DNA from: a virus | Length of the DNA stretch: 64,000 bases | IMG/VR virus record: IMGVR_UViG_3300027996_000011 | Location: 1 to 64,000 of that record | Reading direction: 5' to 3' (one strand) | In this document: piece after piece, positions 1,820 to 51,923 of the stretch | How positions within the stretch are numbered: position 1 is the stretch's first letter | Layout: each line of letters opens with the position of its first letter | The notes under the pieces: generated by a model | What the model was told of the DNA's origin: nothing | What the model saw: only the letters and a program-made list of their open reading frames with translations | The model's database searches: none | Made by a program: the position numbers and the translations under genes

Positions 1820-1824
1820 AATTT

Positions 1825-2925: not shown

Positions 2926-2936
2926 TTTTTAATTTT

Positions 2937-7757: not shown

Positions 7758-7788
7758 AATATTAAACTATTTCTATATAAATAGTTAA

Positions 7789-12278: not shown

Positions 12279-15200
12279 TTATATATCTTCAAAAGAAGCC
12301 CCTGTAGGAGTTATTAGGAATTCAACAAATATGTATTCTAAAGCTCTTGTAGGCTTAATATAGATTTTACCATTCATTTCATTTCTATCTATTTCTTCTG
12401 GGTCATTAGAAAGAACCACTCTAAAGTCTGTTAAACCTCTATCTCTTCTAATAGAATCTAGAATTGGGTTTACTAAGTCTAAGAATTGTTGTCTAACCAC
12501 ATCGTCATTCTGTTCGAATATTAATCTAACCGCGACAGCTGAAATTAATTTTCTAGTTTGTAATAACAATCTTCTTACATTAATTCTATCTAAAGCAGAT
12601 TCTCTAACTTGTAAAGTTTTATTACCCCAAATAATTGGTCCCGTATCACTAAACGTAGCGATTGGGTTAAGTCTACCCACATATAGAGTATCTCTTTCAT
12701 CCAAAGTAAGTTTCTTTCTTGCTTTCACCGCATTTACTAAACCTCTAGTGTAACCTGCCGATGCAAACCAAGGGAAAGATGTGTTGTCTGTTAAAGCTAT
12801 ATTTCTCATTACCTCTGCTGTTGGTGGTATGTATAGTTGTTTGTTATTTGCTGCGTCTCTTATTTGAACCCAAGGGTAGTATGTTGCTGTATAGTTTGAG
12901 TCTATTAAAGAATCTTCTATATTGTCTACCGCTTCATCGGGTGTTATTTGATTTGCAGAATCTGAAGTTGTTGTTACAAACATGTTGTAATCTGGTGTTG
13001 TAGTTATGTATAATGAATCAGCTCTATCTGTTTCAACCATGTCAATAGCTTCATTAACTAAACCTAAATTATCAACATAATCAATACCAGGTGTCGCAAA
13101 TACATTTATATCTACAGATTCTGGGTTATCAAATTTAGATATCCCTCTTAAGTATGCGAAATAATCGGTATTAGCTTCAGTTGTATTTAATTTTTTAAAT
13201 GACCCATCACCAGTTGCTGTTGGGAATTCTGAACTTGTACACGACCCGTTTAAGAAACCTGTTAGACCCATTCTATAGTCATCTGTATTTGACCTTGTTT
13301 TTCTATAGATGTCCCAACCATCAAACCCTCCGTGTGGTGCTATCGTAAATTTACGTGACCTTAATGATTTGTATGGTTCAGTACTTAAAGTAGGTTCGTG
13401 GTTAAATTGTCCAACACCACAATCAAATATAGATAAACCATTTAATGTTGTAGACGACCAAGTTAGGTAAGTTCCAACACCACCAACCACTACTGTAGCT
13501 CCAGAATCCATATGGAATCCTTGTGTAAGTACCTCCCACTGTGAACCGGCAACTCCAGTACAAATATTTGTTGGTGGGATATATCCTTTAAAATCAAAGA
13601 AGTCTGCGTCGTACCCAGCTCCACTACTATTTGAAACACCTAAGTAAACTTTACTAACTTTATCACCACCACTTCTTATAACGTTATTACCCGTACCAGA
13701 ACCGTAAGGTGGGTCAAAAATAGTTTCACCTGGGTTAAAATATTTTGTTTTATATATAATTTTTGGGTTTACACCACAAGTTCCGTACCTTCTGAATCTA
13801 TACCCCTCAAAACCAGCTGGTAATGAACCTACGTAAGTTCCATCCAATAAAGCTTCTGTAGGGTATAACATAGTATACTTAGACCTTAATTCAAATTCAC
13901 CTGTAGAAGTACCTATTTTTCTACCCACAAAAGATACTTTAGTTGGGTCTAGACTACATCTAGTGAATTTTTCTAACACTACTGGGTTTGCGTCGGTATC
14001 ATAAAAATCTCTAACAATAACATCAAATTCAGCTCTTTCAAATGAAAGGTTTACTATTGATATCTTATATTCTCTATTTGCGTTTGTTCCATCAGATATG
14101 GAAACAAATTTAAATAATCTAAATACATCACTACCTTGTAATTCCGAGACTATATATGGTGTCTCCGGTGTTTGCCACTCATTCATGTACCAAGCAATGG
14201 TGTTTGTATTTATTGTTTCTCTAGCAGCTGGTAAGTATTGTAGACAACATTGTAATCCTCTAACTTTACCTAACTTGTAACCTATATTCAATAGTGTTGG
14301 GTACGCCTCCTCAACAAAAACAGGTACGTCAACTTGTTTTTTATCAAAAGGACTTCTACCAAACACTCTAGGTGCGTAGTTTTGAGCTGTATTAGACATA
14401 GAAGTTTCGAAAGTGTAAATATTACCATCGTCAGTTTTTGCACTAATACCAAAAGTAGCGAATGGGTCTTCTAACACACTTTCATAACTGCCACTACAAT
14501 CGAATTCTACATTTCCACTTGTATTAGCACTTATTGCGTATATTGGACCACCAGTACCTAATGAACTTAAACCTCTAGACCTTAGAGTTAGTACATCCAT
14601 ACCATCCCATTCAGTGTTAGCTGTTACTCCTTGGTAATTTATAATGTCGAATACAGCATATCCAGATAAAACAACAATTGTACCACCAGTACTATCAAAA
14701 GTTGTACCAGTTGCTTGTGTTAAATCTAAAGTGCTATTTTGTGTGTCAGCACTCGCGTATAGTTGGTATGATACTCCACTATATGTGGTACCTGTACAAC
14801 ATGCAGTACTTCCAGTATATTCAAATAATCCATAATACCATGGGTCATTTTCATAAGAAGTTAAATCAGAACAATTTGTTCCTAATATATTACCAACACT
14901 AAATGTTGCTGCTGATACTGACGTAGATGCGTTATAGGAGAATGCCGATAAAGCAGATGTAGTAACACCAGTTGCGGTTTCAGTAAAGTATTGTGGTACA
15001 CAACCATATTGGTATATTGTACCATTTAATGTTACTGGTATACATGGAGATTGGCCGTAAGTACATCCAGCCGTATCACCTGAAGATAATAGTGGGTTAA
15101 ATGAAGTATCACTACTAAGTGTCATGGCAGCTGACGCCCAATCTATAAATGATTGATTAAATGATGAAATTGTTGAGCCGTCATTTAATGTGATTGTTTG

Positions 15201-15773
15201 TCCTGTAGCAGACCAGTCACCAAAATCAATACCGGTTAATTCTGATGGTAAAGTTGTCCAAAATGGTGATGACATTGATGCGTCACTAAACGCGTCAAGA
15301 CCAACCGTGGTACCAGAGTAGTAACTATCACCCGTAAGTGGTATATAGAAAGGTAAAACTGTGTTAGAACCCGCCGTTGTACCAGAAGTTACCGCGGAAT
15401 AAGAATGTTCAAGACCTGATGGTTCTAGTTGCCCTATTGTTTGTACTGACCAAGAAGGTCCAGCATCATAACCACTAAGACCCAATACTCTTGTTACAAA
15501 CAATTGATTAGATTGACTTAGATATGATTTTGCTATATACCCTAATTCATATTGTGGGATTTGTGAGTCCACGTATAATTTTGGTGATGTTCCACCAAAT
15601 CTTGTTACATAATCATCATAAGATGCAATGTATATTGGTTCAAAAGCTGGTCCTTTTAAAGCCTCACCAACTAAACCTAATGTTGTAACACCAACACTTT
15701 GTGCTACAAATGTTAAATCTTTCTCTGATGTGTATACACCAGGAGAAACAAATACTTTATTACCGTCTGCCAT
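12279..15773 (-). CDS. gp18: Contractile tail sheath protein, T4 gp18-like, with large Ser/Thr/Gly/Cys-rich insertion
   Basis: N-terminal FVSPGVYTSEKD; C-terminal PWFASAGYTRG, IWGNKTL, ALDRINVRRLL, IYIKPTRALEYIFVEF. Confidence 0.95.
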   Translation of the reverse strand: MADGNKVFVSPGVYTSEKDLTFVAQSVGVTTLGLVGEALKGPAFEPIYIASYDDYVTRFGGTSPKLYVDSQIPQYELGYIAKSYLSQSNQLFVTRVLGLSGYDAGPSWSVQTIGQLEPSGLEHSYSAVTSGTTAGSNTVLPFYIPLTGDSYYSGTTVGLDAFSDASMSSPFWTTLPSELTGIDFGDWSATGQTITLNDGSTISSFNQSFIDWASAAMTLSSDTSFNPLLSSGDTAGCTYGQSPCIPVTLNGTIYQYGCVPQYFTETATGVTTSALSAFSYNASTSVSAATFSVGNILGTNCSDLTSYENDPWYYGLFEYTGSTACCTGTTYSGVSYQLYASADTQNSTLDLTQATGTTFDSTGGTIVVLSGYAVFDIINYQGVTANTEWDGMDVLTLRSRGLSSLGTGGPIYAISANTSGNVEFDCSGSYESVLEDPFATFGISAKTDDGNIYTFETSMSNTAQNYAPRVFGRSPFDKKQVDVPVFVEEAYPTLLNIGYKLGKVRGLQCCLQYLPAARETINTNTIAWYMNEWQTPETPYIVSELQGSDVFRLFKFVSISDGTNANREYKISIVNLSFERAEFDVIVRDFYDTDANPVVLEKFTRCSLDPTKVSFVGRKIGTSTGEFELRSKYTMLYPTEALLDGTYVGSLPAGFEGYRFRRYGTCGVNPKIIYKTKYFNPGETIFDPPYGSGTGNNVIRSGGDKVSKVYLGVSNSSGAGYDADFFDFKGYIPPTNICTGVAGSQWEVLTQGFHMDSGATVVVGGVGTYLTWSSTTLNGLSIFDCGVGQFNHEPTLSTEPYKSLRSRKFTIAPHGGFDGWDIYRKTRSNTDDYRMGLTGFLNGSCTSSEFPTATGDGSFKKLNTTEANTDYFAYLRGISKFDNPESVDINVFATPGIDYVDNLGLVNEAIDMVETDRADSLYITTTPDYNMFVTTTSDSANQITPDEAVDNIEDSLIDSNYTATYYPWVQIRDAANNKQLYIPPTAEVMRNIALTDNTSFPWFASAGYTRGLVNAVKARKKLTLDERDTLYVGRLNPIATFSDTGPIIWGNKTLQVRESALDRINVRRLLLQTRKLISAVAVRLIFEQNDDVVRQQFLDLVNPILDSIRRDRGLTDFRVVLSNDPEEIDRNEMNGKIYIKPTRALEYIFVEFLITPTGASFEDI

Positions 15774-15872
15774 TTTATACTATTTTTTTAAAAAGTTATT
15801 TATTTTCGTTTACTATAAATACAACAGGTAAGATGAAAAGTTACGTAGTAAAAGGTCACATTTGTGTTGTTA

Positions 15873-25357: not shown

Positions 25358-27544
25358 TTAACAAGGTGGTGGTAGTGCACCATTTTCTAAATTACAGTCT
25401 ACACACCCATCATAACAATTTTTACACTCTTCACAGTCTATAAGCTTGTATCTACTTTTGTTTATTAAAAAATTGTGATATATTTCATCTGGTGTTAACG
25501 GTTTTATGTAGTACATCATTTGTGAAATACCACCTATAAATGAACCAGCAAAATTTTCCATAATTAGTCTCTGGTCTGTTTCTCCAGACCAATGAATTAG
25601 GGAACTACTACTACCCGTAGTAGCAGAACAACAATCACTAGTACAACCACTCATATCAGTAATTAAACTTTCTCTTAGTCCCATAGCTCCACCACCCCAT
25701 GACATATTATAAGCTACACCTACCTGAGTTTGTTTATTAGTGTTTAGTTGCCTAGGGATTATTTCCTCATAATCTTTTACCTTATGAACCCTTCTACCAT
25801 TAACATAAAAAGTTAATGTACCCATCCTATATTCTTGTTCGTCAAACCAACTTTGTACATTTGCACCGTGACATGTAAAATCAAAGTAAGCCTCATCTAT
25901 AAAAGAAGGGTACTCGTCTTTACAGGTTGGTTTTGGTTCTGAAGGTGTTTCGGGGTGACAACCAAAAGGGCCGGTACTGGTCTCTATGTGTCTTCCATAT
26001 CTTTGGAATTTATCTGTCCTAACCTTAACCAAGTCATTTATACCACCATTATTATATATTTCACAATCTTCTAGACACAAATTCCTTTCAAATACCACAT
26101 CAACCTGTATCCAGTTTGATGTACAATCCCCACTTCGTGTCATAAAAGCACATATAGGTTCAGAATAACTTTCTTCTATAGTATATCCACAATCAAAACT
26201 ACTACCAGTATAGCAGTCAGAGACTACTTCCTGACCTTCAATAGACGTGGTTCTTCCAGTTGTTTGACACCCACCTGTATACCTAATAGTTCTGTAACCA
26301 ATTCTCATATCATCAGTAATCCTAAATCCAATAGCATTACTATATACATCATACTGTGCTGTTGGTGATTTATTTTCACCTGTTAGTTTAACCGGGTCTT
26401 CTAGACTAGCTGTGAACCCTGTTTGTCCCTCACAAATATCACTAACCACCCCTGTTTCAACACAGTCATAACAACAACCAGTATCACCAGTTAAAGTTGT
26501 ACACTCAGAAAAAGCAGAATAAGACATGTCTTCGTGAAACCATTTGTCCTCAGCTCTAATTCCTTTGTAAAAAAAGAAACCATACTTATCTGTCCTACCT
26601 ATGGTCATCCCGGACCCATTCCATGCACTGTAATTAAAAGTGTATTGTGGACCAATTGAATTATATGAATAAGCTGTGGGGTTTGCACTACATAATGGTG
26701 TTATGACACCAGTAGCTCCCATAGTATTCTTATACCAACCACTAGTATTGTAACAATTACCGTAAATACCATATTTTTTTAGCCCATCTTCAATTAATGG
26801 TGAGTCTGGTCCATTAATATCAGTACAAATAGTATTTAATTTAAGGTAAGTTTCGAATGACCACCCACATTTAGGTCTTGTGGGTAATACTTCATAAGGA
26901 TAACCATATAATTTGTAGAATCCTTGGTAGAAACCACCTTTTAATTCTTGGTAGTAACCAGAGTAGTCTGTTTTATCCAATATTGTTGTATCGGTATAAA
27001 AAGTATTACTCCACCAAGGGAACCCGTAGGCTTTTACTTGATGCATTTTAAATCTCTTATCATATGAAAATTTATCGTGTGTTAAAGATGTTGGTAAACT
27101 ATCATATAAATCTATAGAATAAGTTCCTTTACTAACTTCATTCGGGTTAACCAGCCCATTATCGGTACCTGTCCAAATAATATCTCGTATACTATATCCC
27201 GACCCTGTATAAGGGCAATCGCAATTAGATTTAGCGTGTGGCCAAGTATTTTTACTTATAATAACAAAAGGTTTAAAACCACTATCAACATAATAACTAA
27301 CTGTTAGTCCTGTAGGATATTGGTAATTACAATCTGTTATAGGTTGTGTAGAAGCAGTTGTATTTAAATCTATCCATACTGGCAATTTTTCACCATCACC
27401 ATGGTCGATTATTTTTGTTGACCATACGACATCTGTTTTAAAATCTTTTTCATCAGACGCTAAAAAAATATCATAGTAAGAGCTGTAATTCAGTTTACTA
27501 TCTATTTTATTGAAATAAAAATTACTTAAATTTTGTGTTCCCAT
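25358..27544 (-). CDS. Cys-rich virion protein with LamG/concanavalin-like elements
   Basis: WSFETYLK, TLTFYVNGRRV, FIGGISQMMYYIKPLTPDEI; about 31 Cys by hand count; late motif upstream. Confidence 0.6.
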   Translation of the reverse strand: MGTQNLSNFYFNKIDSKLNYSSYYDIFLASDEKDFKTDVVWSTKIIDHGDGEKLPVWIDLNTTASTQPITDCNYQYPTGLTVSYYVDSGFKPFVIISKNTWPHAKSNCDCPYTGSGYSIRDIIWTGTDNGLVNPNEVSKGTYSIDLYDSLPTSLTHDKFSYDKRFKMHQVKAYGFPWWSNTFYTDTTILDKTDYSGYYQELKGGFYQGFYKLYGYPYEVLPTRPKCGWSFETYLKLNTICTDINGPDSPLIEDGLKKYGIYGNCYNTSGWYKNTMGATGVITPLCSANPTAYSYNSIGPQYTFNYSAWNGSGMTIGRTDKYGFFFYKGIRAEDKWFHEDMSYSAFSECTTLTGDTGCCYDCVETGVVSDICEGQTGFTASLEDPVKLTGENKSPTAQYDVYSNAIGFRITDDMRIGYRTIRYTGGCQTTGRTTSIEGQEVVSDCYTGSSFDCGYTIEESYSEPICAFMTRSGDCTSNWIQVDVVFERNLCLEDCEIYNNGGINDLVKVRTDKFQRYGRHIETSTGPFGCHPETPSEPKPTCKDEYPSFIDEAYFDFTCHGANVQSWFDEQEYRMGTLTFYVNGRRVHKVKDYEEIIPRQLNTNKQTQVGVAYNMSWGGGAMGLRESLITDMSGCTSDCCSATTGSSSSLIHWSGETDQRLIMENFAGSFIGGISQMMYYIKPLTPDEIYHNFLINKSRYKLIDCEECKNCYDGCVDCNLENGALPPPC

Positions 27545-32006: not shown

Positions 32007-32159
32007 ATGGAAGTGTTAATGTGTTTGTTTGTTGTTTTATTTATAATTTTTTTATGTAGATATGTTATGTCAGAGGGGTATAAACGGGAAAACGAAAAAC
32101 AATTTCTTCATAACTTAGAAAACTTTGATAAAAAAGAAAAAGAAAATGAAACAAAGTAA
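32007..32159 (+). CDS. Small single-pass membrane protein (50 aa)
   Basis: Not in the track. MEVLMCLFVVLFIIFLCRYVMSEGYKRENEKQFLHNLENFDKKEKENETK fills the gap between neighbours. Confidence 0.6.
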   Translation: MEVLMCLFVVLFIIFLCRYVMSEGYKRENEKQFLHNLENFDKKEKENETK

Positions 32160-33447: not shown

Positions 33448-34890
33448 ATGTCATTATCAGTAGTATTCAGTTCAAAAGAAATAAATAAAGATTTTATAGA
33501 GTTAATAAAAAAAACCTCTGGGGTACATAAAATAGAAATTTTACCATATGAAAATCCAGGAAAATATTCTTTAACTGATGTCTACAATATGGGTTTGAAG
33601 GACTCAAAAAATGACATAGTTTTATTTTGTCATGACGATATTAAGTTTGATACTAAAAATTGGGGTAGAAAGTTACTTAAACATTTTGAAAAAAGTGATT
33701 ATGGTATATTAGGTGTTGCTGGATGTAGGTATTTACCTGAATCTGGAAAATGGTGGGAAATACCATCAGAAATGATGGGTCAGGTTTACCACGAAAATGA
33801 TGGTAAAAGATGGTTATCAACATATAACCCTAAATTTGGTAATAATATATTACCCTCTGTTTTAGTTGATGGGTTATTTTTTGCTGTTAATAAGAATAAC
33901 TTATCTAGGGATTTTGACGAGTCCGTTAGGGGGTTCCATTTTTATGATTTAAACTTCTGTGTACAAAACTTCTTGTCTGGTGTTAAAATTGGTGTTATCT
34001 CTAATATTGACATTACCCACTTATCTATTGGTCAAACTAATCAAGAATGGGAAAGGAATAGGATTTTATTTAGTGAAAAGTATAGTGATAGTTTACCATT
34101 AATGGTTAGCTTAGTTATGCCCGAATTAAAACCTAAAAAAAGTAGTCCTTTAGTTTCTATTATAATTCCTGTTTATAATTATGGAAAAACTTTAGATAGG
34201 GCAATAACTTCAGTATTTTCCCAAACCTATAAAAATTTAGAAATTATTATAATAGATGATGGGTCTACAGATAATTTTACAAAGTTAAAACTTAAAAATT
34301 TAAAATTACCAAATACTAAAATCATATTTCAAGAAAATGGAGGCCCTTCTAAAGCTAGGAATGAAGGTATAAAAATTTCTAGTGGTGAATATATTTTACC
34401 TTTGGATTCTGATGATTTGATGCACCCTACTTACGTAGAACAGTGTATAAAAATTATAACTACAGATAAAAAATATAGCCCTATATATTGTGATACAGTA
34501 CATGAGGGACAAATGAGGGGTATAGAAAAAAGGCCTGAGTGGAGTAAAGAAAGATTAATTAATGGCCCTTTTATCGTTAATTGTTCTATGTTTAGTAGAG
34601 AAGCTTTTGATTCTATAAATGGTTATGACGAAGAACTAAAAGGTTGGGAGGATTACGACATGTGGTTACGAATGATGCAAGAAGGTTATGTGGGTAAAAG
34701 AATCCCAAACCCTTTATTTATTTATTTCCACCATGAAAGTGAAGGGACGGTATCCACTATAGCAAATCAAGATACTAAATCACTACACGAAAAAATATTA
34801 ATAAAAAACAAGTTAATAACTGACCCAGCTAAAACATCTATTTACACTCCTTTAACGAATAATAACACATCATTTAATTCATTTGTATAA
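33448..34890 (+). CDS. Two-domain GT-A glycosyltransferase (GT2-like + GT2)
   Basis: N-domain FCHDDI...FHFYD; C-domain VSIIIPVYN, IIDDGSTD, LPLDSDD, WEDYDMWLR. Confidence 0.9.
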   Translation: MSLSVVFSSKEINKDFIELIKKTSGVHKIEILPYENPGKYSLTDVYNMGLKDSKNDIVLFCHDDIKFDTKNWGRKLLKHFEKSDYGILGVAGCRYLPESGKWWEIPSEMMGQVYHENDGKRWLSTYNPKFGNNILPSVLVDGLFFAVNKNNLSRDFDESVRGFHFYDLNFCVQNFLSGVKIGVISNIDITHLSIGQTNQEWERNRILFSEKYSDSLPLMVSLVMPELKPKKSSPLVSIIIPVYNYGKTLDRAITSVFSQTYKNLEIIIIDDGSTDNFTKLKLKNLKLPNTKIIFQENGGPSKARNEGIKISSGEYILPLDSDDLMHPTYVEQCIKIITTDKKYSPIYCDTVHEGQMRGIEKRPEWSKERLINGPFIVNCSMFSREAFDSINGYDEELKGWEDYDMWLRMMQEGYVGKRIPNPLFIYFHHESEGTVSTIANQDTKSLHEKILIKNKLITDPAKTSIYTPLTNNNTSFNSFV

Positions 34891-34893
34891 AAT

Positions 34894-35589
34894 ATGGAAA
34901 CACTAACAGTATTATGTTCAAACTACAATTCAGATAGGTGGATTGATAACTACTTATTGTCACTTAACAACCAACTTCTTAAGGAGTTTACTATTATATT
35001 TGTTGACGCAAATTCTACTGACCACTCACTTAAAACAATTAAAAATTATAAATTTAGAGAAGGTATCACCAAAAAAATTATAGAAAACGATAAAAGAATT
35101 ACGATTTACGAAGCTTGGAATATGGCTATAGAGGCTAGTAAAAGTGAGTTTGTAATTAATTTTAATACTGATGATAGATTGTTTCCCGGTGCCTTACTAA
35201 CCCTATACCATTATATGGTACAAAATCCAAATGTTGACATTGCTTATGGTACTAGTTTAATTGTTGGTGATGAGGACCATAATAATATTAGAGGAATACA
35301 GAATTGGCCGGAACATAGCCACGAAATATTATTACAAAATTGTATTTGTGGACCATTTCCAATAGTAAAAAAATCAGTACTTGTAAATAATGGATTATTT
35401 AACCCAAAATATACTATATCAGGTGATTATGAAATGTGGTTAAGACTATCTAAAAGAAATTACAAATTTAAAAAAATAATTGACTTTTTAGGTTCATACT
35501 ACGACAACCCTAAAGGGGTTAGTTCCGATAAATCCACACTACAAGAACACATAAAACAAGATACTGAAATAAGAAATTTACATAGATGA
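34894..35589 (+). CDS. GT2 glycosyltransferase
   Basis: FVDANSTD, IYEAWN, NTDD, SGDYEMWLR. Confidence 0.85.
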   Translation: METLTVLCSNYNSDRWIDNYLLSLNNQLLKEFTIIFVDANSTDHSLKTIKNYKFREGITKKIIENDKRITIYEAWNMAIEASKSEFVINFNTDDRLFPGALLTLYHYMVQNPNVDIAYGTSLIVGDEDHNNIRGIQNWPEHSHEILLQNCICGPFPIVKKSVLVNNGLFNPKYTISGDYEMWLRLSKRNYKFKKIIDFLGSYYDNPKGVSSDKSTLQEHIKQDTEIRNLHR

Positions 35590-36272
35590 AAAAATTAATC
35601 TGTTATAGTTTGTGGGGTGATAACCCTAGATATACTGAAGGAGCTATTAGAAATGCTGAATTAGCTAAAGTAGTATATCCTGATTGGATTTGTAGGTTTT
35701 ATGTTGGTAATTGTGTTCCGATTGATATAATGAATAGATTAACTTCTTTTGATAATGTTGAAATAGTTGAGATGGGTGTTGTTGGTGATTGGACTGGTAT
35801 GTTTTGGCGTTTTACCGCTGCTAGTGATAAAGATGTTAGTATTATGTTATCTAGAGATACTGATAGTAGATTAACTTTACGGGAAAAGTATTCTGTGGAT
35901 GAGTGGTTAAATAGTAAGTTTAGTTTTCATATTATGAGAGACCACCCTTATCATTCTACCGAAATTTTAGGTGGTATGTGGGGTGTTAAAGGTGACATAT
36001 TAGACGGTATAAGTAATTTAATAACTGATTATGTAAAAGGTGATTTTTGGCAAGTAGACCAGAATTTTTTAAGAGAAAAAATTTGGCCTTTAGTTAAAGA
36101 AAATTCTTTTACTCACGATGAATTCTTTAGTCATGTTTTTGGTCCTGCTAACCCATATAAATTTAAAAGAGACCCCAAACACTTTATTGGTCAAGCTTAC
36201 GATGGTGATGATAAAATATTAGACGATAATGTATATTTTAATGATTACTTAGATAAGTCTAAAAAAATATAA
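35586..36272 (+). CDS. Putative GT-A-fold glycosyltransferase
   Basis: YSLWG...MFWRF...SRDTDSR...HIMRDHPYH..ILGGMWG...DQ.FL; DxD motif. Confidence 0.55.
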   Translation: MKKLICYSLWGDNPRYTEGAIRNAELAKVVYPDWICRFYVGNCVPIDIMNRLTSFDNVEIVEMGVVGDWTGMFWRFTAASDKDVSIMLSRDTDSRLTLREKYSVDEWLNSKFSFHIMRDHPYHSTEILGGMWGVKGDILDGISNLITDYVKGDFWQVDQNFLREKIWPLVKENSFTHDEFFSHVFGPANPYKFKRDPKHFIGQAYDGDDKILDDNVYFNDYLDKSKKI

Positions 36273-36276
36273 CAAT

Positions 36277-37104
36277 ATGAGAGTTTACGCAAATATAATG
36301 ACAAAAAATGAGGAGCTACTACTAAACGAACTACTCCCAATATGGAATAACTACCCAGTAGAAAAATTTATCTTTTATAACGATAATTCTACAGACGGTA
36401 GCGTTAACCTTATAAAATCCTACTTAGGTGATAGAGCTGTTATTCTTAATGATAATTTAGAAGAATTTAATGAATCACACAATAGGTCTAGAATGTTAGA
36501 ATATAGTAGAGAAGATGGGGCTACTCATGTTATAGCTTTTGATTGTGACGAATTACTCTCAAATAATACTATAACTAATTTTAATGAGGTTATTAATATG
36601 TATGAAACTAAAGACGTTTATCTTTACTGGTATAATGTTGTAAATAACACTTTAAGTGAGACTAGGAATGACCCTTCTTACATACATAACTATCGTAGTT
36701 TTATATTACCACTTAAAAATACTGGTAAATTTAACTTAGCTTTATGGAAATACCACACACCTAGAACACCACAAATCAACCTACCTAAAAGCACAACTAA
36801 AGATTATGGTGTTATACACCTACAATCAATTAATACAAAATTTTACGCCTTAAAACAATTATGGTATAAACACTATGAGTATGTTAAATATAACCACCCG
36901 GTAACATTTATTAATCAAAGATATGACCCAGTAATTAATAATTTAAATTTTATGTCTGTACAAACACCAGAAGAAATTCTTGGTGATATAAAATTTGACC
37001 ACACGGTATATGATAAGATGTGTGAACATAAAGGATATTTAAAATTTATAAAAGAAAATTATAATAGTGAGTTAGTTACTTTTGGTTCTGAGTTTTTAGA
37101 TTAA
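36277..37104 (+). CDS. GT2-like glycosyltransferase
   Basis: KNEE, YNDNSTDGS, AFDCDE. Confidence 0.75.
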   Translation: MRVYANIMTKNEELLLNELLPIWNNYPVEKFIFYNDNSTDGSVNLIKSYLGDRAVILNDNLEEFNESHNRSRMLEYSREDGATHVIAFDCDELLSNNTITNFNEVINMYETKDVYLYWYNVVNNTLSETRNDPSYIHNYRSFILPLKNTGKFNLALWKYHTPRTPQINLPKSTTKDYGVIHLQSINTKFYALKQLWYKHYEYVKYNHPVTFINQRYDPVINNLNFMSVQTPEEILGDIKFDHTVYDKMCEHKGYLKFIKENYNSELVTFGSEFLD

Positions 37105-37142
37105 AATATTTACGAATATAAAAATAATATGTATATTTTAGT

Positions 37143-37769
37143 ATGGACCATCACGATAAACTAAACTTCGAAGAAATCACTAAATTTATTAAAGATGATA
37201 GTGTTGTTGTAGATGTTGGGGCACATATAGGTGGTTATTGTGATTTTTTTTTAGAGAAGTTGGGTAAGTCAGGTAAAATATACGCTTTAGAAATACACCC
37301 AAAGAACTACGCTAGACTGTATAATAAATATAAATTATTAAATAATTTAGTTTTGATTCATAAAGCTGCTTCTAATAATGACGGGGTTGAGGATGTGTAT
37401 CATAACGGTAGTCCCGGACATACCCAAACTACTAATATATTAGGTAAAGACACTAATGAAGTAAGTGTGCCTAGAATTGGTTCGATACAGAGTATTAAAT
37501 TGGACACACTATTACATAATGAAAATAGTATAGATTTAGTAAAGATTGATGTTGAGGGTGCTGAGATAAAAGTTTTAGAAGGATTATCTAAAATACATAA
37601 TAGAATTAATCATTTACTTATTGAATGTCATTTTGATAAGGATTGGGGCAGGATAAAAGACCTTTTACTTAATGAGTATAATTTTTTGTGTTACGATTTA
37701 AGTGATAAAAACAATATAGATATTACCACTGACAAACGAGCTTATCAGTGTTTATGTAAAAAAAAATAA
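37143..37769 (+). CDS. FkbM-family methyltransferase
   Basis: VDVGAHIG, KIDVEGAE. Confidence 0.9.
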   Translation: MDHHDKLNFEEITKFIKDDSVVVDVGAHIGGYCDFFLEKLGKSGKIYALEIHPKNYARLYNKYKLLNNLVLIHKAASNNDGVEDVYHNGSPGHTQTTNILGKDTNEVSVPRIGSIQSIKLDTLLHNENSIDLVKIDVEGAEIKVLEGLSKIHNRINHLLIECHFDKDWGRIKDLLLNEYNFLCYDLSDKNNIDITTDKRAYQCLCKKK

Positions 37770-37775
37770 TTTAAT

Positions 37776-38690
37776 ATGAAAAAAGTAATAGTTACAGGAG
37801 GGGCTGGATTTATAGGTTCACATTTAGTGGATAAATTAATATCTAAAGGTGTGACAGTTATTGTATTAGATAACCTATCATCAGGTAAAGAAAAAAATAT
37901 AAATCCCAAGGCTACACACATAAATGTGGATTTAAGTACTATGGATACCAAAAAATTTCATTGGGAGTTATATCCTATGAAGTTTTTTAAAAATGTCGAC
38001 ACCGTTTTTCATTTGGCAGCTACACCACAAGTACAATATTCCATAGAGAACCCAACAGATAACAATAATTTAGACTCTTTAATTAATATTTTAGATTTAA
38101 GTAGGGTTATAGAAGCAAAAAGATTTGTATTCAGCAGTAGTTCTGCTGTTTATGGTAACCCAACTTACACACCAATAGATGAAAATCACCCACTAAACCC
38201 ATTAAGTCCTTATGCTCTACACAAATTAATTGGTGAACAGTATTGTAAACTGTACTCGAACTTGTATAATTTAGATACAGCGTGTTTAAGGTATTTTAAT
38301 GCATATGGTAATAGAATGCCTAACAAAGGAGCTTACAGAAGTGTAATATCTATTTTTATGGAACAAACTGAAAAAAAACAACTACTTAATATTGTAAATG
38401 ACGGTGAACAAAAAAGAGATTTTGTACATGTAGAAGACATTGTCCAAGCAAACATTCTATGTGCTGAATCAAAAAATAATCTTAATGGTGAAATATTTAA
38501 TGTGGGTACCGGTAAAGCTTTTACTGTTAATGAAATAGCTAATATGTTTGGTGGTGAAAAAAAATATGGTGAGCTTAGGATTGAACCCAAGGATTCGGTA
38601 GCTGAAAACGCAAAAATAATTTTAGACTTGGGTTGGTCACCTACGGGAAACTTAAATAATTGGATAAATAAAATATTAAATAATGAATAG
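37776..38690 (+). CDS. NAD-dependent nucleotide-sugar epimerase/dehydratase
   Basis: TGGAGFIGSH, SSSAVYG, YALHK, LRYFNAYG. Confidence 0.9.
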   Translation: MKKVIVTGGAGFIGSHLVDKLISKGVTVIVLDNLSSGKEKNINPKATHINVDLSTMDTKKFHWELYPMKFFKNVDTVFHLAATPQVQYSIENPTDNNNLDSLINILDLSRVIEAKRFVFSSSSAVYGNPTYTPIDENHPLNPLSPYALHKLIGEQYCKLYSNLYNLDTACLRYFNAYGNRMPNKGAYRSVISIFMEQTEKKQLLNIVNDGEQKRDFVHVEDIVQANILCAESKNNLNGEIFNVGTGKAFTVNEIANMFGGEKKYGELRIEPKDSVAENAKIILDLGWSPTGNLNNWINKILNNE

Positions 38691-39333
38691 TAAGACCATA
38701 TCTTTATGTATTACGTGTTATGATGGTGATTATCATTTACTTAATACATTATTAAATGAGTGTAAAAAACAAACTGTACCACCTAATGAGATTATAATAT
38801 CTTCTAGTGGTTTGGGTAGTGAATCTTTGTTAGGTATTGGTATGATAAAAATAAAAGGAGTGGAGGTGCCGATTATTAGTGTGAATTTTTTAGATAGACA
38901 TTCTGAAGGTAGAGCAAGAAATGAAGGCGGTTTAAAATCAAATATGGACATTATACAGTTTTTTGATGTAGATGATACCCCACACCCCCAAAGAATAGAA
39001 ATAACCAAAAAAATATTCGAGACTACTAATTGTGACGCTTTAGTCCACAGTTACCAAACTAATAATAAAGGGTTTGAGTCTTTAACTTTTACACCTTCTA
39101 AAGTTTTTGATTGTAGGTGGAACCCTGATAATGGTTTGGGTGGTGGCCAACTTATAGCTAACAAAGAATGTAATATAGCTCATGGCCCTATAACAATAAA
39201 AAAAGAGATTTCAGAAAGTATAAAATACACTTTTGATAGTAGAGCTGCGGATTGTAAATTTGCTGGCAAATTAATGGAAAATAACTATAAAGTATTTTAT
39301 TATGATGATATATTAATGAATTATAATTTATAA
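38683..39333 (+). CDS. GT2-like glycosyltransferase
   Basis: ISLCIT, ARNEG, FFDVDD..HPQRIE. Confidence 0.7.
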   Translation: MNSKTISLCITCYDGDYHLLNTLLNECKKQTVPPNEIIISSSGLGSESLLGIGMIKIKGVEVPIISVNFLDRHSEGRARNEGGLKSNMDIIQFFDVDDTPHPQRIEITKKIFETTNCDALVHSYQTNNKGFESLTFTPSKVFDCRWNPDNGLGGGQLIANKECNIAHGPITIKKEISESIKYTFDSRAADCKFAGKLMENNYKVFYYDDILMNYNL

Positions 39334-39334
39334 C

Positions 39335-40090
39335 ATGGAAAACTACACTACATACTGTTGGTGGACAGGTGATAACGAACTATCAGAAAATAGAAAAAAG
39401 TCCTTAGAGACCATGAAAATAGCACCTGGGGGTAATATTGTCTTCATAGATAAGGACAATTTAAAAGATTATATATTACCGGAATCCCCATTACATGAAG
39501 GGTACCATTACCTTTCACCAATCCAAAAAGGTGATTATTTAAAATGTTATTTTATGCATCATTATGGTGGTGGTTATAGTGATATAAAACAAACTTCTAA
39601 ACCGTGGACTGAATACTTTGATAGGTTAAATGAAAATAAAGATTTGTACGCTATAGGGTATGGTGAAAGGGAACCAAATCATGTAGCTTGTCTAGAAGAT
39701 TGTAGGTTAGACCCTCAAGAATCAATTAAATGTAGAACCAACACACTTAGTGAAGATGGTAAATCGTGGACATCCCAACACCTAAGAAATAACTGGACTA
39801 AGTTAATTGGTTGTGGGTTAATGATTTGTAGAAAAAATACACCTTTTACTCGTGACTGGTGGGAAGCTTTAAATGAAAAAATGGATGGATACCTAGAAGA
39901 ATTAAAAAAGTACCCCTCTCAATGGCCTCGAGATTCTCATAACCATGTAAACCCTAATACTGGTGAAAAATCTAAATATCCAATTGCGTGGGCGGTATTA
40001 CACGGACATGTATATCATCCACTAACTTTAAAACACCATAAAAATATAGACCAGGATTTAACCTACCCTGTAATGAGTAATTACCAATAA
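39335..40090 (+). CDS. GT32-like (DxD) glycosyltransferase
   Basis: DYLKCYFMHHYGGGYSDIK. Confidence 0.7.
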   Translation: MENYTTYCWWTGDNELSENRKKSLETMKIAPGGNIVFIDKDNLKDYILPESPLHEGYHYLSPIQKGDYLKCYFMHHYGGGYSDIKQTSKPWTEYFDRLNENKDLYAIGYGEREPNHVACLEDCRLDPQESIKCRTNTLSEDGKSWTSQHLRNNWTKLIGCGLMICRKNTPFTRDWWEALNEKMDGYLEELKKYPSQWPRDSHNHVNPNTGEKSKYPIAWAVLHGHVYHPLTLKHHKNIDQDLTYPVMSNYQ

Positions 40091-40092
40091 CT

Positions 40093-40653
40093 ATGAGTTC
40101 ACATTCACACTGGTCTACGGCCACCGATAAAATTTTTATTAAAAAAATATATGATAATATAGGGGCATACATCAATCAAGGAACTATCCTAGATTTAGGT
40201 GTTGAGGATTATAATTTTGATTGTAATGGGTTTATTGATAACCAGTCTGTAAAATATTGGCAATTGGAACCTAATCGAGTTTGTGGAAATAATGATGGTT
40301 TTTTTAATTGTACCGTACAGGAATGTTTGGACAAGTATCCTGGTAATGAAAATAAATTTGATTCTATATTAGATTTTGGGGTTTTGGGTTGGAATGGAAT
40401 TAGGTTTTCCCAAGAAGAACAAGAAAAATATATTAGTGTTATCCTTAAACTCTTAAAACCTGGTGGTTTATATATTTTACATGGTGATAGAGTTGAGGAG
40501 GATGAAGAGTATAAAATTAATATAGATAAATTTATATCTCCTAACTTTGAGTTGGTTTCGGTTATGGGGTTTAAGTCTCATGAGATTATAGAGTGCCCTA
40601 GATGGGGTACCGTATGGGATATAAGATTTTTTAAGAAAAATATAAAAATATGA
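40093..40653 (+). CDS. Class I SAM-dependent methyltransferase
   Basis: ILDLGV, FDSIL..GVLGW, LLKPGGLYI. Confidence 0.7.
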   Translation: MSSHSHWSTATDKIFIKKIYDNIGAYINQGTILDLGVEDYNFDCNGFIDNQSVKYWQLEPNRVCGNNDGFFNCTVQECLDKYPGNENKFDSILDFGVLGWNGIRFSQEEQEKYISVILKLLKPGGLYILHGDRVEEDEEYKINIDKFISPNFELVSVMGFKSHEIIECPRWGTVWDIRFFKKNIKI

Positions 40654-41231
40654 AAAAAGTATTACTAGACTGTGGTGCAAATCATTTTCAAGGACTTAAA
40701 AAATTAATAACTGACTTAGATGTTGATTCAGGGTGGGTTGTGCATTCTTTTGAACCTAACCCTAACATTAGTGTTCCTGCACCCCCCAACGTCACACTTC
40801 ATCGTAAAGCGATATGGATAGAAGATGGTATACAACCATTTGCTGTAGAATCTTCAAGAGCGGAGACGGGGTGTGATATTAATACTGGTGGTGGTTCCAC
40901 ACTAAACCAGAATGAGTTAATTCAAAACCTTTCCTCACCAGTAAGTTTTACTAAAATAGATGTACCAACCATAGACTTCTCCGAATTTATAAAAAATAAT
41001 TTTTCAAAAGAGGATTACATAGTGGTTAAAATGGACATTGAGGGGGCTGAGTTTGAGGTCATATCTAAATTAATAGATACCGGGGTGGTACATTATATTA
41101 ATTACTTACTTATCGAATATCACGATAAAACTTTTAAAACAGCACCTATAACACCTAGACCATTTTCACGAATTAAGTGTGAACAAATAAAATTTTTTAA
41201 CGATAATAATATTAAATTTGAATTATACTAA
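40650..41231 (+). CDS. FkbM-family methyltransferase
   Basis: LDCGAN, SFEPNP, KMDIEGAE, IEYH. Confidence 0.85.
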   Translation: MKKVLLDCGANHFQGLKKLITDLDVDSGWVVHSFEPNPNISVPAPPNVTLHRKAIWIEDGIQPFAVESSRAETGCDINTGGGSTLNQNELIQNLSSPVSFTKIDVPTIDFSEFIKNNFSKEDYIVVKMDIEGAEFEVISKLIDTGVVHYINYLLIEYHDKTFKTAPITPRPFSRIKCEQIKFFNDNNIKFELY

Positions 41232-41833
41232 TGAAATACAAAAACACAAATAAATTAATGATTGTGGCTCATGCAGATGATGAGTTAATTTGGGCTGGTG
41301 AAACACTACTAAAAGAGAAAGGACAGTGGGATATACTTTGTGTTGTTACACCAGACCACCAAAGTAAATTTAGGATACCAATGTTTTTAGAGAGTGTAAG
41401 TAACTACCTAGAATGCAACACTACAATGTTAGACTTTATAGATACTGGATGGAGGAGTAACACTCAAGCAAACCCAATCCGTGGTGATATAAACATACCT
41501 ATTTTAGAAAAGATTAAAAGTAAAGAATGGTCTATGATTTTAACTCACGGTGAATCCGGTGAATATGGTCATTACCACCACACTCAAGTACACCAATCAG
41601 TAAAAAGTATATTAACTGAAATTAATAAACTAGAAAAGCTTTTTGTGTTCGACCCAATTAAACACCCACATCCTTTAGTTTTATCTAAAGAAAAATTATC
41701 TTTGTTCGAAACCACATACGATATTGAAAGTAACTTACCACCAAGTCACCCTAGACAATGGATACATGGATGGAACACTAGTATGGGTTGGGAGGAGAGA
41801 ATAGTAAATTACAAAACTAAAAAAATATTATGA
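41231..41833 (+). CDS. PIG-L/LmbE-family N-deacetylase
   Basis: VAHADDE, THGESGEYGHYHH. Confidence 0.8.
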   Translation: MKYKNTNKLMIVAHADDELIWAGETLLKEKGQWDILCVVTPDHQSKFRIPMFLESVSNYLECNTTMLDFIDTGWRSNTQANPIRGDINIPILEKIKSKEWSMILTHGESGEYGHYHHTQVHQSVKSILTEINKLEKLFVFDPIKHPHPLVLSKEKLSLFETTYDIESNLPPSHPRQWIHGWNTSMGWEERIVNYKTKKIL

Positions 41834-42537
41834 AAAATGAATTATGTATACACCACCACTTAGGTTTAGGTGACCATTTTGATATGAACGGTATGGTTAG
41901 AAATTACCTTAAGGAATATGACAAAGTACATATTTTTTCTAAACCAAATTACTACAAAATGATTGATTACATGTATAGGGATGAAGATAATATTTTAGTA
42001 GTTGAGATTCCTGGTGGTCCACAGGAGGTAATGCAGGCTGAGGAATATTATAGAAATAGTAATTGTGGTGAATTTTTGAGAATTGGTTTTGAGCATTATC
42101 CCTTTGGGCAAGAAGAATTATATGATAAGAATTGTTGGGAGTTTTTTTATGAACAGGTTGACGTTCCTTATGAAGTTAGAACTGATATGTTTCACGTGAA
42201 ACGTGACAAAGAAGGTGAAAATACACTACTTACTAAACTAAATCCAAACAAAGAAAAATTTATCTTTGTACATGATGATAAATCTAGGGGGTTCGAAGTT
42301 AGACGTAATTATTTTTTAGATAAAAATTTATTAGTTTTAGAAAATGATGTTAGTGAAAATATTTTTCACTTTATAAAATTAATAGAAGAAGCTGAAGAAA
42401 TACATTGTATGGAAAGTTCTATGAAGTCATTGATTGACCTTTATGCTAAAACTGATAATATTTTTTACCACGATTTTAGAAATCAGCCTATTGGTAACTT
42501 AACTCACAAAAAATGGAATGTCATAAAGTATGACTGA
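41830..42537 (+). CDS. Putative GT-B-like glycosyltransferase
   Basis: HHHLGLGD N-terminus, FIFVHDD, AEEIHCMESS. Confidence 0.45.
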   Translation: MKNELCIHHHLGLGDHFDMNGMVRNYLKEYDKVHIFSKPNYYKMIDYMYRDEDNILVVEIPGGPQEVMQAEEYYRNSNCGEFLRIGFEHYPFGQEELYDKNCWEFFYEQVDVPYEVRTDMFHVKRDKEGENTLLTKLNPNKEKFIFVHDDKSRGFEVRRNYFLDKNLLVLENDVSENIFHFIKLIEEAEEIHCMESSMKSLIDLYAKTDNIFYHDFRNQPIGNLTHKKWNVIKYD

Positions 42538-43366
42538 GTTAATAAATTATAACTTTATGACTAGACCCGCATCTCATTGTGTGGATTCTTCTGAAGAATT
42601 TTACAATTCTTGTGGTGTAAGTAGGGGGAACAAAAATGGGTTTTCCATAGAAACATTAAAAGATGGTGATGTTATTTTTGTAAAAACAGACTTTATACAT
42701 AACGGTACGTTCCAAAAACAAATACTACCACAAATAAAAACAAAATTTATTTTAGTTACTGGGGTATCTTCTTTTTCTGTTGACGAGGGGGATAGTTCGT
42801 ACTTGGATATTTTAAATCACCCTAACTTAGTTAAATGGTTTTGTACTAACCCACCCATTAAACCCAACGAAAAAATAGTTTGGTTACCTATTGGGTTTGA
42901 GGAACGTGAACGTGATGGGGGTAATGTTAAAATTTTAAATAATTTTTACAAAAGCCACACGCCTTGGGATAAAAAAGAAAATAAAATTTACATACCTCAC
43001 CATTCTAATACGTTTAAAGATAGAAATTCTATAATAGAAAAATTATCTTTAGAGTCTTATGTAGTAACCGAACCAACTAGACTTTCTTTTGAGGAGTATC
43101 TAAAAAATATGGACAAGTATAAGTTTGTTTTGTCTTTGCGGGGTGCTGGGTGGGATTGTCATAGACACTATGAATGTTTACTAGTTGGTTCCGTGCCAAT
43201 TATGGAAAAAGGCCCAATTCAAAAGTCTTTCGAAAGTAATGGTTTACCTAATTTAGAAATAGGTGAAATTTCACAGAATATATTTGATGACCATTATAAT
43301 TTTTTATCAAGTAAGAATTTCTTGACAATGGACCATCATTTTAATAAAATTAACAATATAAAATAA
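42530..43366 (+). CDS. Exostosin (GT47)-like glycosyltransferase
   Basis: YKFVLSLRGAGWDCHRHYECLLVGSVPI. Confidence 0.7.
   Translation: MTELINYNFMTRPASHCVDSSEEFYNSCGVSRGNKNGFSIETLKDGDVIFVKTDFIHNGTFQKQILPQIKTKFILVTGVSSFSVDEGDSSYLDILNHPNLVKWFCTNPPIKPNEKIVWLPIGFEERERDGGNVKILNNFYKSHTPWDKKENKIYIPHHSNTFKDRNSIIEKLSLESYVVTEPTRLSFEEYLKNMDKYKFVLSLRGAGWDCHRHYECLLVGSVPIMEKGPIQKSFESNGLPNLEIGEISQNIFDDHYNFLSSKNFLTMDHHFNKINNIK
43322..43350 (+). promoter_or_regulatory. Internal sigma70-like promoter
   Basis: TTGACA-N17-TAAAAT in the 3' end of the upstream gene. Confidence 0.55.
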
Positions 43367-43373
43367 TAATACT

Positions 43374-44282
43374 ATGATAGACATATCTTTTGATAAAAAC
43401 CCAATCCTTTATAGAGATTATGAAGCGTGTCAAAACATGCTATCTACTATAAAAAATGAAGACTATAATTACCCAGAAAACGTAACTTTATTTCACATAT
43501 ACACCGAATTTAGAACAGATAAAGAGGTAGAATGTTTAAAGTCTTTTTTGGCTACACAAAACCTAGATAAATGTAAGCTTATAATTTGGTCGGATTACGA
43601 TATAAACGATAATCCACTAATCCAAAAATATAAAAAATATTTAGATTTACGTTTATGGGACGCTAAAAAAGAAGCTGAGGGTACTGTTTTAGAAGGTATA
43701 CCACATTTAGATGCTATAGATGATAAACACTACCTACAAAGTGATTTATTAAGAATATTAGTTCTTTATAAGTATGGGGGTGTGTGGGTTGATATGGATA
43801 TTATATTTTTAAGGGACTTTAGACCTATCTTAGACCAAGAATATATGTACCAATGGGGTGGTGATACCGATTTTTCAAACCAGGGAGCTTGTGCTACGGT
43901 ACTTTCCGGTTTTAAAGAAAGTGAGTTTATGTTTAAACTATTACAAGGAATAGTAGAGTCTAGAATTATTCCAGCTACTACAATATGGGGTAAAGATTTG
44001 TTCGCTACGTTATGGAAAAAATGGCCTAATTTTACTATTTTTCCATCACCATTTTTTAATACGGAATGGTTAATTAGTAAAAAAGATGTTAAATTAAGTG
44101 AAGATATAGAAAGTGGTTGGTTTATTAATAATGGTGTTGGGGACAAACATTTATTTTTAGATTCATTTGCTTGGCACTGGCATAACTCAAGTAAAAAACA
44201 TTTACCAATACAAGAGGGGTCTAAATTTTATGCTTTACAAAAATTAACAAATAAAAGATTAAAAGAAAAAGGAATATTATGA
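43374..44282 (+). CDS. GT32 (DxD; alpha-1,4-glycosyltransferase-like)
   Basis: SDLLRILVLYKYGGVWVDMD, WHWHN. Confidence 0.85.
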   Translation: MIDISFDKNPILYRDYEACQNMLSTIKNEDYNYPENVTLFHIYTEFRTDKEVECLKSFLATQNLDKCKLIIWSDYDINDNPLIQKYKKYLDLRLWDAKKEAEGTVLEGIPHLDAIDDKHYLQSDLLRILVLYKYGGVWVDMDIIFLRDFRPILDQEYMYQWGGDTDFSNQGACATVLSGFKESEFMFKLLQGIVESRIIPATTIWGKDLFATLWKKWPNFTIFPSPFFNTEWLISKKDVKLSEDIESGWFINNGVGDKHLFLDSFAWHWHNSSKKHLPIQEGSKFYALQKLTNKRLKEKGIL

Positions 44283-44665
44283 AAATAGAGGTTTCAATAG
44301 GAGAAGTGGTTGATAAGATTACCATACTACAGATTAAAGAAGAAAAAATTATAGATTTATTAAAACTAGAACATATAAAGCATGAATTATTGGTTTTAGA
44401 AAATACGCTTACAGAATCAAAAATAGTGGTACCTATAAATCTAATAGAAAAACTTAAAGAAGTTAATTTAAAATTGTGGGATGCTGAAGATATTATACGT
44501 GATAGGGAAAATAGGAATTTATTTGACGATGAATTTGTTAAATGTGCAAGACTAGACGCTAAGTTAAACGACGAAAGATTTTTAATTAAGAATGAAATAA
44601 ATAATGCTTGTGAATCTAACATTAAAGAACAAAAATCATATGAGGGACTTTATTCCGCAAATTGA
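44279..44665 (+). CDS. DUF6165-like protein
   Basis: VSIGEVVDKITILQIK...NLKLWDAED...NDER..IK.EIN...EQKSY. Confidence 0.7.
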   Translation: MKIEVSIGEVVDKITILQIKEEKIIDLLKLEHIKHELLVLENTLTESKIVVPINLIEKLKEVNLKLWDAEDIIRDRENRNLFDDEFVKCARLDAKLNDERFLIKNEINNACESNIKEQKSYEGLYSAN

Positions 44666-46891: not shown

Positions 46892-47334
46892 TGAGTGAGG
46901 CAAAACCAATACCCCAAGACTTATATAATGAAATTTTGAGTACCATGCCTATAATTTGTGTAGATGGGATTATACAAAAAGGGGATGAGACACTTTTATT
47001 ATTAAGGGATAATGAACCTGAAAAAGGTAAATGGTGGTTTCCTGGTGGTCGTGTTTTAAAAGGTGAAAGATTGGAAGATGCTATTATTAGAAAGATAAAA
47101 GAGGAGACTGGTTTACTTTGTGAAGTTTTAGAAATGTTAGACATCACCCAAACATCATTTACAACAGGACCTAATGATATACCAGTACACACAATTAATG
47201 TCTGCTTTACTTTAAAAATAAAAAGTGGTGTCGTATCTCTAGATAGTGAACATAATGAGTATGGTTGGTTTACAGAAGCTCCAGAGACCGCACATTCAGT
47301 AATAAAATATATTTTTAAAAAATTAAAAAAATGA
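46891..47334 (+). CDS. gmm: GDP-mannose mannosyl hydrolase (Nudix)
   Basis: P..CVD, R..EP.KG.W..PGGRV.KGE, EETG, EH..Y.WF. Confidence 0.75.
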   Translation: MSEAKPIPQDLYNEILSTMPIICVDGIIQKGDETLLLLRDNEPEKGKWWFPGGRVLKGERLEDAIIRKIKEETGLLCEVLEMLDITQTSFTTGPNDIPVHTINVCFTLKIKSGVVSLDSEHNEYGWFTEAPETAHSVIKYIFKKLKK

Positions 47335-49209: not shown

Positions 49210-49227
49210 AAATTTAAATAAATAATA

Positions 49228-49965: not shown

Positions 49966-49975
49966 GATTTATAAT
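49946..49975 (+). promoter_or_regulatory. Possible sigma70-like promoter
   Basis: TTGATT-N18-TATAAT, 11 nt before ATG 49987. Confidence 0.4.
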
Positions 49976-49986
49976 TAGGTTTAAAT

Positions 49987-50843: not shown

Positions 50844-50849
50844 TTAAAT

Positions 50850-51911: not shown

Positions 51912-51923
51912 AAAAATATTAAA

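Follow-up and report, generated by a model that had tools for sequence, protein, structure and literature searches.

We analyzed a 64,000-nucleotide stretch of viral DNA (here called the window), which forms the first 64 kb of the 95.7-kb IMG/VR contig IMGVR_UViG_3300027996_000011 (completeness estimate, ~30%), with a focus on its tail sheath gene. A short motif, a hydrophobic residue followed by [ST]-[GA]-x-T, appears to be a selected, lineage-specific signal on outward-facing tail proteins—an insertion in the sheath, an S74-chaperone fiber protein, two proteins designated p25358 and p57823, and the fibers of related phages. We tentatively propose, with slightly less than even confidence, that phage-encoded O-glycosylation of serine and threonine residues on tail surfaces uses the motif as its acceptor or recognition site; the capsid appears to lie outside this scheme. 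A purely structural role for the motif is weighed below, and coordinates of all features are given in Table 1.

The original prediction had picked out 19 [ST][GA]x[ST] tetrapeptides in sheath residues 126 to 418 and clusters of the same motif in other virion proteins. All of its hand counts were reproduced, including the 19 sheath tetrapeptides as listed. A total of 22 sites were found in the sheath, with 19 in residues 126 to 418 and 3 in the other 872 amino acids (expected, 3.2). Compared with shuffles of each region's own residues, sheath residues 126 to 418 had 19 sites versus 4.9 (z = 7.0), residues 1 to 130 of the S74 fiber had 10 (located in residues 24 to 124) versus 1.3 (z = 8.2), p25358 had 14 versus 2.7 (z = 6.9), and p57823 had 8 versus 1.6 (z = 5.1). 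The motif is 4 to 6 times too frequent on the outward-facing sheath and fiber-like proteins, and the enrichment that had been predicted for these four regions held (z of 5 to 8), with the remaining open reading frames (ORFs) of the 95.7-kb contig at chance and 2 sites in the 918-amino-acid (aa) polymerase. Since the motif had been picked by eye, we enumerated 24 class patterns, among which [ST][GA]x[ST] was an outlier (56 versus 13; z = 12.9); five reorderings of the same residue classes were at chance level (z = -0.6 to 2.0). Local and block-60 shuffles gave z values of 5 to 24. The first two motif residues are encoded by 27 different codon pairs, so the motif is not a DNA word, and a DNA-level cause of the excess was ruled out. 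The motif was also distinct, as had been claimed, from the Bacteroidota sequon D[ST][AILMVT], which was not enriched in the motif proteins (7 versus 9.2 expected); N-x-S/T occurred there at chance level.

The window has a G+C content of ~31% and encodes, among other genes, a Gp23-type capsid protein, the 1,164-aa tail sheath, a family-B polymerase, and the S74-chaperone fiber protein. The closest deposited phages—Microcystis phage Mel-JY01, huge phage LR756508, and Flavobacterium phage immuto—are distant, with capsid identities of 41 to 45%. The sheath type itself is very common in aquatic metagenomes (757 proteins and at least 599 IMG/VR stretches, on contigs of up to 424 kb), and the phage belongs to a widespread lineage of uncultured aquatic jumbo phages. 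Two larger relatives with ~50% sheath identity each, G001 (203 kb) and G002 (105 kb), were read whole; all related records are fragments (4 to 68% complete). The host phylum is probably Bacteroidota. In agreement with such a host, a motif-rich 960-aa protein of G001 (L118:5934-8816) contains SprB repeats (PF13573, 3e-18), repeats characteristic of the gliding adhesins of Bacteroidota. No relatives of this SprB-repeat protein were found when bacterial genomes were scanned.

Genome-wide, G001 had 369 sites versus ~200 expected, and G002 had 185 versus ~89. The excess was concentrated in a module of fiber-like proteins, where it was much stronger; one of these proteins, which matches annotated tail fibers of other phages, carries 59 sites versus ~15 to 19. 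Overall, the motif was found in more than 15 proteins that show no detectable similarity to one another, and every one of them is an outward tail part. No excess was seen in T4 (121 versus 104 to 112), in the LR756508 segment (61 versus 64 to 74), or in the homologous fibers of Pseudomonas phage Rollin and Roseobacter phage CRP-6. In Flavobacterium phage immuto, the sharper motif was in mild, twofold excess (44 versus 17 to 28). An apparent excess in Mel-JY01 was rejected as an instance of this motif, as its source was a low-complexity protein with collagen-like SGT sequence. No paper on the fiber word SGGTMTG was found in a literature search.

The motif was refined on the four window proteins and 17 motif-rich proteins of the two relatives, a set picked for motif richness, so that absolute z values and counts are inflated and residue-to-residue comparisons are unaffected. 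In a 20 × 20 table of a-[GA]-x-b, only hydroxyl pairs stood out (S..T, 148 versus 25; T..T, 153 versus 34). Asn and Asp were depleted at the first position and are no substitute for Ser/Thr, and Val and Ile were not enriched at the last position and are no substitute for Thr. With the leading Ser/Thr counted as position 0, position 1 favored Gly (5.0-fold) and Ala (5.2-fold) and not Asn (0.65-fold), Asp (1.0-fold), or Ser (also not enriched). Pro was excluded at x, where Gly and Asn were mildly preferred; Thr greatly outnumbered Ser at position 3; and position -1 was hardly ever charged, with Val/Leu/Ile or an aromatic residue enriched 2- to 3-fold. The [GA]xT half was abundant after Ser/Thr (38 versus 6.6) and depleted without it (14 versus 23). 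The unit thus delimited appears to be hydrophobic-[ST]-[GA]-x(not Pro)-T. In a two-residue type II′ or I′ β-hairpin turn, turn statistics show that the positive-phi position takes Gly, with Asn and Asp as substitutes, and disfavors Ala. The use of Ala as much as Gly at position 1, with Asn and Asp at or below expectation, argues against a positive-phi turn of this kind.

The gene at 12,279 to 15,773 encodes a T4-type contractile tail sheath (gp18). It matched PF17482 (2e-7, above the cutoff), PF04984 (weakly), and phrog_23 (4e-56), and Foldseek matched its model to T4 and KP1 sheath chains with probabilities of 0.98 to 1.0. The gp18-type core consists of the N-terminal ~100 aa and residues ~870 to 1164. 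Residues ~150 to 450 have no counterpart in the sheaths of T4, immuto, Mel-JY01, and LR756508, in line with the earlier view of this region as an insertion; the part flagged at that time (14,520 to 15,398) falls within the insertion as now delimited (14,364 to 15,473). Sites were mapped by hand on an AlphaFold model of the full-length sheath built with 106 sequences (predicted local distance difference test [pLDDT], 68.6; insertion mostly 70 to 90). A fold of residues 101 to 470 alone with 40 sequences was unusable (pLDDT, 58). A Foldseek search with the full-length model recognized the core alone and returned no named fold for the insertion. Based on homology to T4 gp18, whose layout we take to be established, and on the Foldseek matches, the insertion point after residue ~100 probably leads to the outermost part of the subunit.

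All 120 sheath homologues among the matches listed had insertion motif sites above expectation, by ~3- to 4-fold in the closer ones. Across 106 aligned sheaths, the insertion holds 11.6 sites per protein, of which 6.9 fall in ~14 columns of at least 20% occupancy; the 4.6 sporadic sites per protein equal the level of control patterns, i.e., chance. One column is 100% [ST][GA]x[ST], with S/T and A/G interchanging, and column 415 has 39 Ala to 30 Gly.

A different distribution was seen in p25358, which is probably LamG-like and likely a fiber or tail accessory protein. Its homologues (n = 120) had 1.77 versus 0.50 sites per 100 aa, and 7.9 sites per protein lay in poorly conserved columns compared to ~3.3 for controls; the family thus appears to keep its motif density in variable modules too. 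The p57823 homologue in G001 had 4 sites versus 0.9 to 1.8. Neither p25358 nor p57823 matched a family in Pfam, PHROGs, or NCBIfam, and PDB sequence searches with these two proteins and a G001 fiber returned nothing useful. In the fiber protein, the Peptidase_S74 match (residues 158 to 211) was weak and below the cutoff. The outward insertions are also rich in Cys (12279-15773, 25358-27544, 60180-61976, and 21146-22177), with CC and CxC pairs beside motif sites. These Cys residues lie at positions 237 to 326 of the sheath and 254 to 317 of the capsid protein, and p25358 has 31 (4.3%), including a C-terminal CxxCxxCxxxCxxC cluster. The Cys richness may reflect disulfide or metal stabilization of exposed domains.

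As had been predicted, the phage encodes its own glycosyltransferases (GTs). The glycan-building island includes ~9 GT-like genes, FkbM methyltransferases, epimerases, Gmd, two DegT aminotransferases, a PIG-L deacetylase, and a NUDIX gene, with PhoH and NT5C genes interleaved. Three GTs are conserved in G001 and/or a set of 24 IMG/VR contigs of the lineage. In those 24 contigs, the N-terminal domain of the GT encoded at 33,448 is kept at 45 to 84% identity, and three of them, equal in length to the longest contigs listed for sheath-family hits, are probably the same contigs as those hits. In G001, a syntenic island contains homologues of the genes at 33448, 41830, 50850, and 51924 (three GTs plus 41830) and differs in the middle. 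The frame of the island (32833-53425; 95195-110003 in G001) runs dUTPase-like gene, GT, variable cassette, PhoH, NT5C, GT, GT, and sigma-like gene. No transmembrane (TM)-like segments were found in the island proteins, and Bac_transf and Wzx/Polysacc_synt families were not found in five related records, which are fragments. With no priming transferase, flippase, or TM-like segment detected, these genes do not appear to form a lipid-carrier (Wzx/Wzy-type) pathway. GT2 genes were present in 7 of 12 related fragments, records that are uninformative on absence. None of 10 island proteins, mostly GTs, reached a curated NCBIfam cutoff.

We infer that the motif proteins are substrates of these GTs, which would recognize them through the motif. 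The motif would then be a new O-glycosylation sequon, read in the cytoplasm by soluble phage GTs, with strain-variable glycans placed on sheath and fibers but not on the head; we hold this fuller scheme to be possible, at odds just short of balanced. The conserved soluble GTs (33448, 50850, and 51924, perhaps with 41830) would start the sugar chain in the cytoplasm, on a protein that is folded or still folding. The swappable enzymes from the middle of the island would later lengthen the chain by adding deoxy, amino, and methylated sugars that are specific to the strain. A chemically sharp word on many proteins without detectable homology, in a single lineage, favors a trans-acting reader such as a GT. 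So does the use of Ala equally with Gly while Asn and Asp are no substitutes, a combination that fits no known turn type. A conserved set of GTs around a swappable cassette would be expected for an exposed product.

There is also a precedent for a soluble GT-A enzyme with a G-x-T acceptor, which favors a GT as the reader: SgtA of Clostridioides difficile, a soluble enzyme with its GT-A domain fused to TPR repeats, adds O-linked N-acetylglucosamine to Thr/Ser in the G-x-T repeats of BclA3 (PMC7157674). The SgtA acceptor is Thr (Ser also) after Gly/Ala-x on a surface fiber protein, and the [GA]-x-T half of the phage motif matches it. BclA of Bacillus anthracis is presumably similar, with O-glycosylated Thr in Gly-x-Thr collagen-like repeats. 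Unlike the BclA3 repeats, the phage unit is a tetrapeptide (its [GA]xT half being depleted when alone), the four window proteins have no collagen-like GXY runs, and the GPT used by BclA3 does not fit, Pro being excluded at x. Nor was a GT2-TPR protein found in the phage records examined: the scanned GT-cluster proteins carry no TPR domain, and no TPR_11 was found in G000, G001, and G002, all fragments.

Other viruses glycosylate their own particles. GTs of the mycobacteriophages Che8, Corndog, and Myrna are reported to modify the phages' own structural proteins, with the glycans on C-terminal tails of capsid and tail-tube subunits (Freeman et al. 2023, as cited in PMC12619734). The present phage likewise encodes GTs; unlike in the mycobacteriophages, its candidate sites are internal (sheath insertion and fibers), its capsid is not enriched, and its host is probably Bacteroidota. 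PBCV-1, a chlorovirus, infects eukaryotes and carries N-linked capsid glycans made without a host-type lipid-carrier pathway. Its capsid glycosylation is described as autonomous (PMC9614988 and PMC5408694). With PBCV-1, the present phage shares soluble virus-encoded GTs, Gmd-type sugar-nucleotide enzymes, and methyltransferases; it differs in that its capsid lacks motif enrichment and its candidate linkage is O-linked rather than N-linked.

The D-[ST]-[AILMVT] system of Bacteroidota, the probable host phylum, resembles the phage motif in its 3- to 4-residue Ser/Thr sequon with a hydrophobic neighbor. That general O-glycosylation system operates in the periplasm. In contrast, assembly of the phage proteins takes place in the cytoplasm; they lack TM-like segments and hydrophobic N termini, and they are not enriched in the host-type sequon. 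Large soluble islands of GT and sugar-nucleotide genes are shared with other big aquatic myophages, namely, large T4-like cyanophages, aquatic jumbo phages, and moraphages; unlike here, none of those glycan ("lipopolysaccharide/cell-wall") clusters is known to have a proposed acceptor or motif. Four GT orthogroups are core genes of the moraphages, whose predicted hosts are Bacteroidota (PMC12619734).

Several observations weigh against glycosylation, and many of them are shared with a purely structural alternative, in which the motif is a strand-end or strand-start element of β-rich decoration and fiber modules (β-helical repeats and small Ig- or SprB-like domains), no modification takes place, and the island serves another target. 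We consider this alternative a strong contender, nearly as likely as the sequon. The sheath excess appears to be wholly positional and, being confined to ~14 conserved columns, resembles structural residues. The universal sheath core itself holds one fully conserved instance, TGAS at residue 1157. Of 20 sites in the sheath model, 11 are at a strand start or end, 4 are in coil, 3 are within strands, and 2 to 3 are in helix; together with the hydrophobic residue at -1, this suggests partly packed positions. In the fibers of relatives, the motif sits within regular repeats (e.g., nltvTGNT and plSGGTvTGDT), and one protein has the SprB repeats described above. The predominance of Thr at position 3 and the mild Gly/Asn preference at x also fit a structural element. 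The original prediction had envisaged a glycan coat over head, sheath, and fibers, with the capsid insertion as one of the motif clusters. The motif excess on sheath and fibers agrees with this, but the capsid, the largest surface, is at chance both in the window (4 sites versus 2.2 in its insertion; P = 0.17) and in G001 (3 versus ~1.7), so the head drops out. Fixed sheath columns and repeat-bound fiber sites would also speak against a shifting "glycan shield." None of the GTs matched a known protein O-GT family.

The structural alternative has difficulties of its own. No known turn type takes Ala as readily as Gly while rejecting Asn and Asp, and β-branched Val and Ile do not replace Thr. 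The motif is absent from the T4 fibers and sheath and from the homologous Rollin and CRP-6 fibers, is common to many proteins without detectable homology, and is in excess at nonconserved positions of the p25358 family as well. The two readings need not be exclusive, as a strand-loop motif can itself be the target of a transferase. Heptosylation of AIDA-I, in which we understand a structural strand-loop motif to be recognized by the transferase, would be a case in point.

A reader other than a GT (for example, a different kind of modifying enzyme, a chaperone of assembly, or a ligand from the host or the environment), together with an island that modifies DNA or the host envelope, is unlikely. 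The dUTPase-like, NT5C, and PhoH genes interleaved with the island in both the window and G001 would fit such a role, as would thymidylate-synthase-family genes in G001. However, C5-methyltransferase and Tet/JBP families were not found in five records (the Tet/JBP search was blank in control genomes too and shows little), we noticed neither a kinase nor another modifying enzyme in the ORFs scanned, and ~10 GTs plus genes for methylated and amino sugars would far exceed the needs of known DNA sugar modification. A chance or compositional artifact, or a DNA-level repeat, is highly improbable: the regions are rich in Ser/Thr (24 to 30%) and the motif was chosen after the sequence was read, but this explanation is refuted by the shuffles, the reordered patterns, and the codon-pair diversity, and the excess recurs in hundreds of homologues.

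Large soluble glycan islands are common in big aquatic phages, and a sharply defined motif on named, abundant virion proteins offers a testable candidate for what receives their sugars. If the O-glycosylation proposal is true, this would be, as far as we know, the first time that a protein glycosylation sequon has been defined for a phage infecting Gram-negative hosts and the first sugar-coated contractile tail, with a bearing on host recognition, particle stability, and evasion of grazing or immunity. If the motif is structural, it would still be an unusual lineage-wide sequence rule for β-rich tail modules.

Table 1. Features of the window discussed in the text
Feature	Position	Strand	Basis or remark
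Tail sheath gene, 1,164 aa	12279..15773	minus	PF17482, PF04984, phrog_23; Foldseek to T4 and KP1 sheath chains
Lineage-specific outer sheath insertion, residues 101-470, 20 of 22 motif sites	14364..15473	minus	Counts, alignments, model
TATTTATA box, 41 nt upstream of sheath start	15814..15821	minus	Late-promoter-like; precedes many structural genes
S74-chaperone fiber protein, motif-rich N-terminal 130 aa	21146..21535 (gene 21146-22177)	plus	10 sites versus 1.3
p25358, 728-aa Cys-rich protein	25358..27544	minus	14 sites versus 2.7; homologue in G001 fiber module
TATTTATA box, sole one upstream of the plus-strand run holding the glycan island	32038..32045	plus	Motif placement
Glycan-building island, soluble enzymes	33448..52721	plus	Profile matches
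Two-domain GT (PF13712 + GT2)	33448..34890	plus	Profile matches, homologue search
235-aa protein, no known family	41830..42537	plus	Conserved in G001 island
Two lineage-conserved GT genes: GT1-like (50850-51911) and GT2-like (51924-52721)	50850..52721	plus	Directly upstream of sigma-like gene
p57823, 501-aa late protein without known family	57823..59328	plus	8 sites versus 1.6
Gp23-type major capsid protein, insertion residues 110-335, 4 sites	60180..61976	minus	Motif not above chance

Some further features of the relatives were recorded. Mel-JY01 has long collagen-like SGT/SGS repeat proteins (635-3052 and 9444-9986; L093) together with two GT2 genes, which recalls the BclA/SgtA pairing. The cultured phage immuto (NC_055915) has its own small GT/DegT/epimerase cluster at 52 to 59 kb and is without the lineage-conserved GTs. 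Two G001 fibers (66989-69556 and 80451-81884) contain a conserved nonrepeat module, ...HxEGRxHWN..., that matches tail fibers of Rollin, CRP-6, and phage zth2-2 and probably explains an H[GA]xG excess (20 versus 2.5). Also in G001, a thymidylate-synthase-family gene is matched as two halves, which lie in separate frames ~1.8 kb apart (G001:C1:199944-202823; L127-L128), which could be an intron, a homing-endonuclease insertion, or two genes.

In the window, many structural genes have TATTTATA (coding-strand sense) 4 to 41 nt before their start codons, at positions 7776, 9412, 12271, 15814, 17704, 19502, 19997, 25339, 27576, 32038, 53431, and further. The total count of this box equals the compositional expectation (39 versus 38), and its placement is strongly nonrandom. 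We regard it as a candidate late promoter, unlike the TATAAATA of T4, and the box upstream of the island run is a weak hint of late expression of the island.

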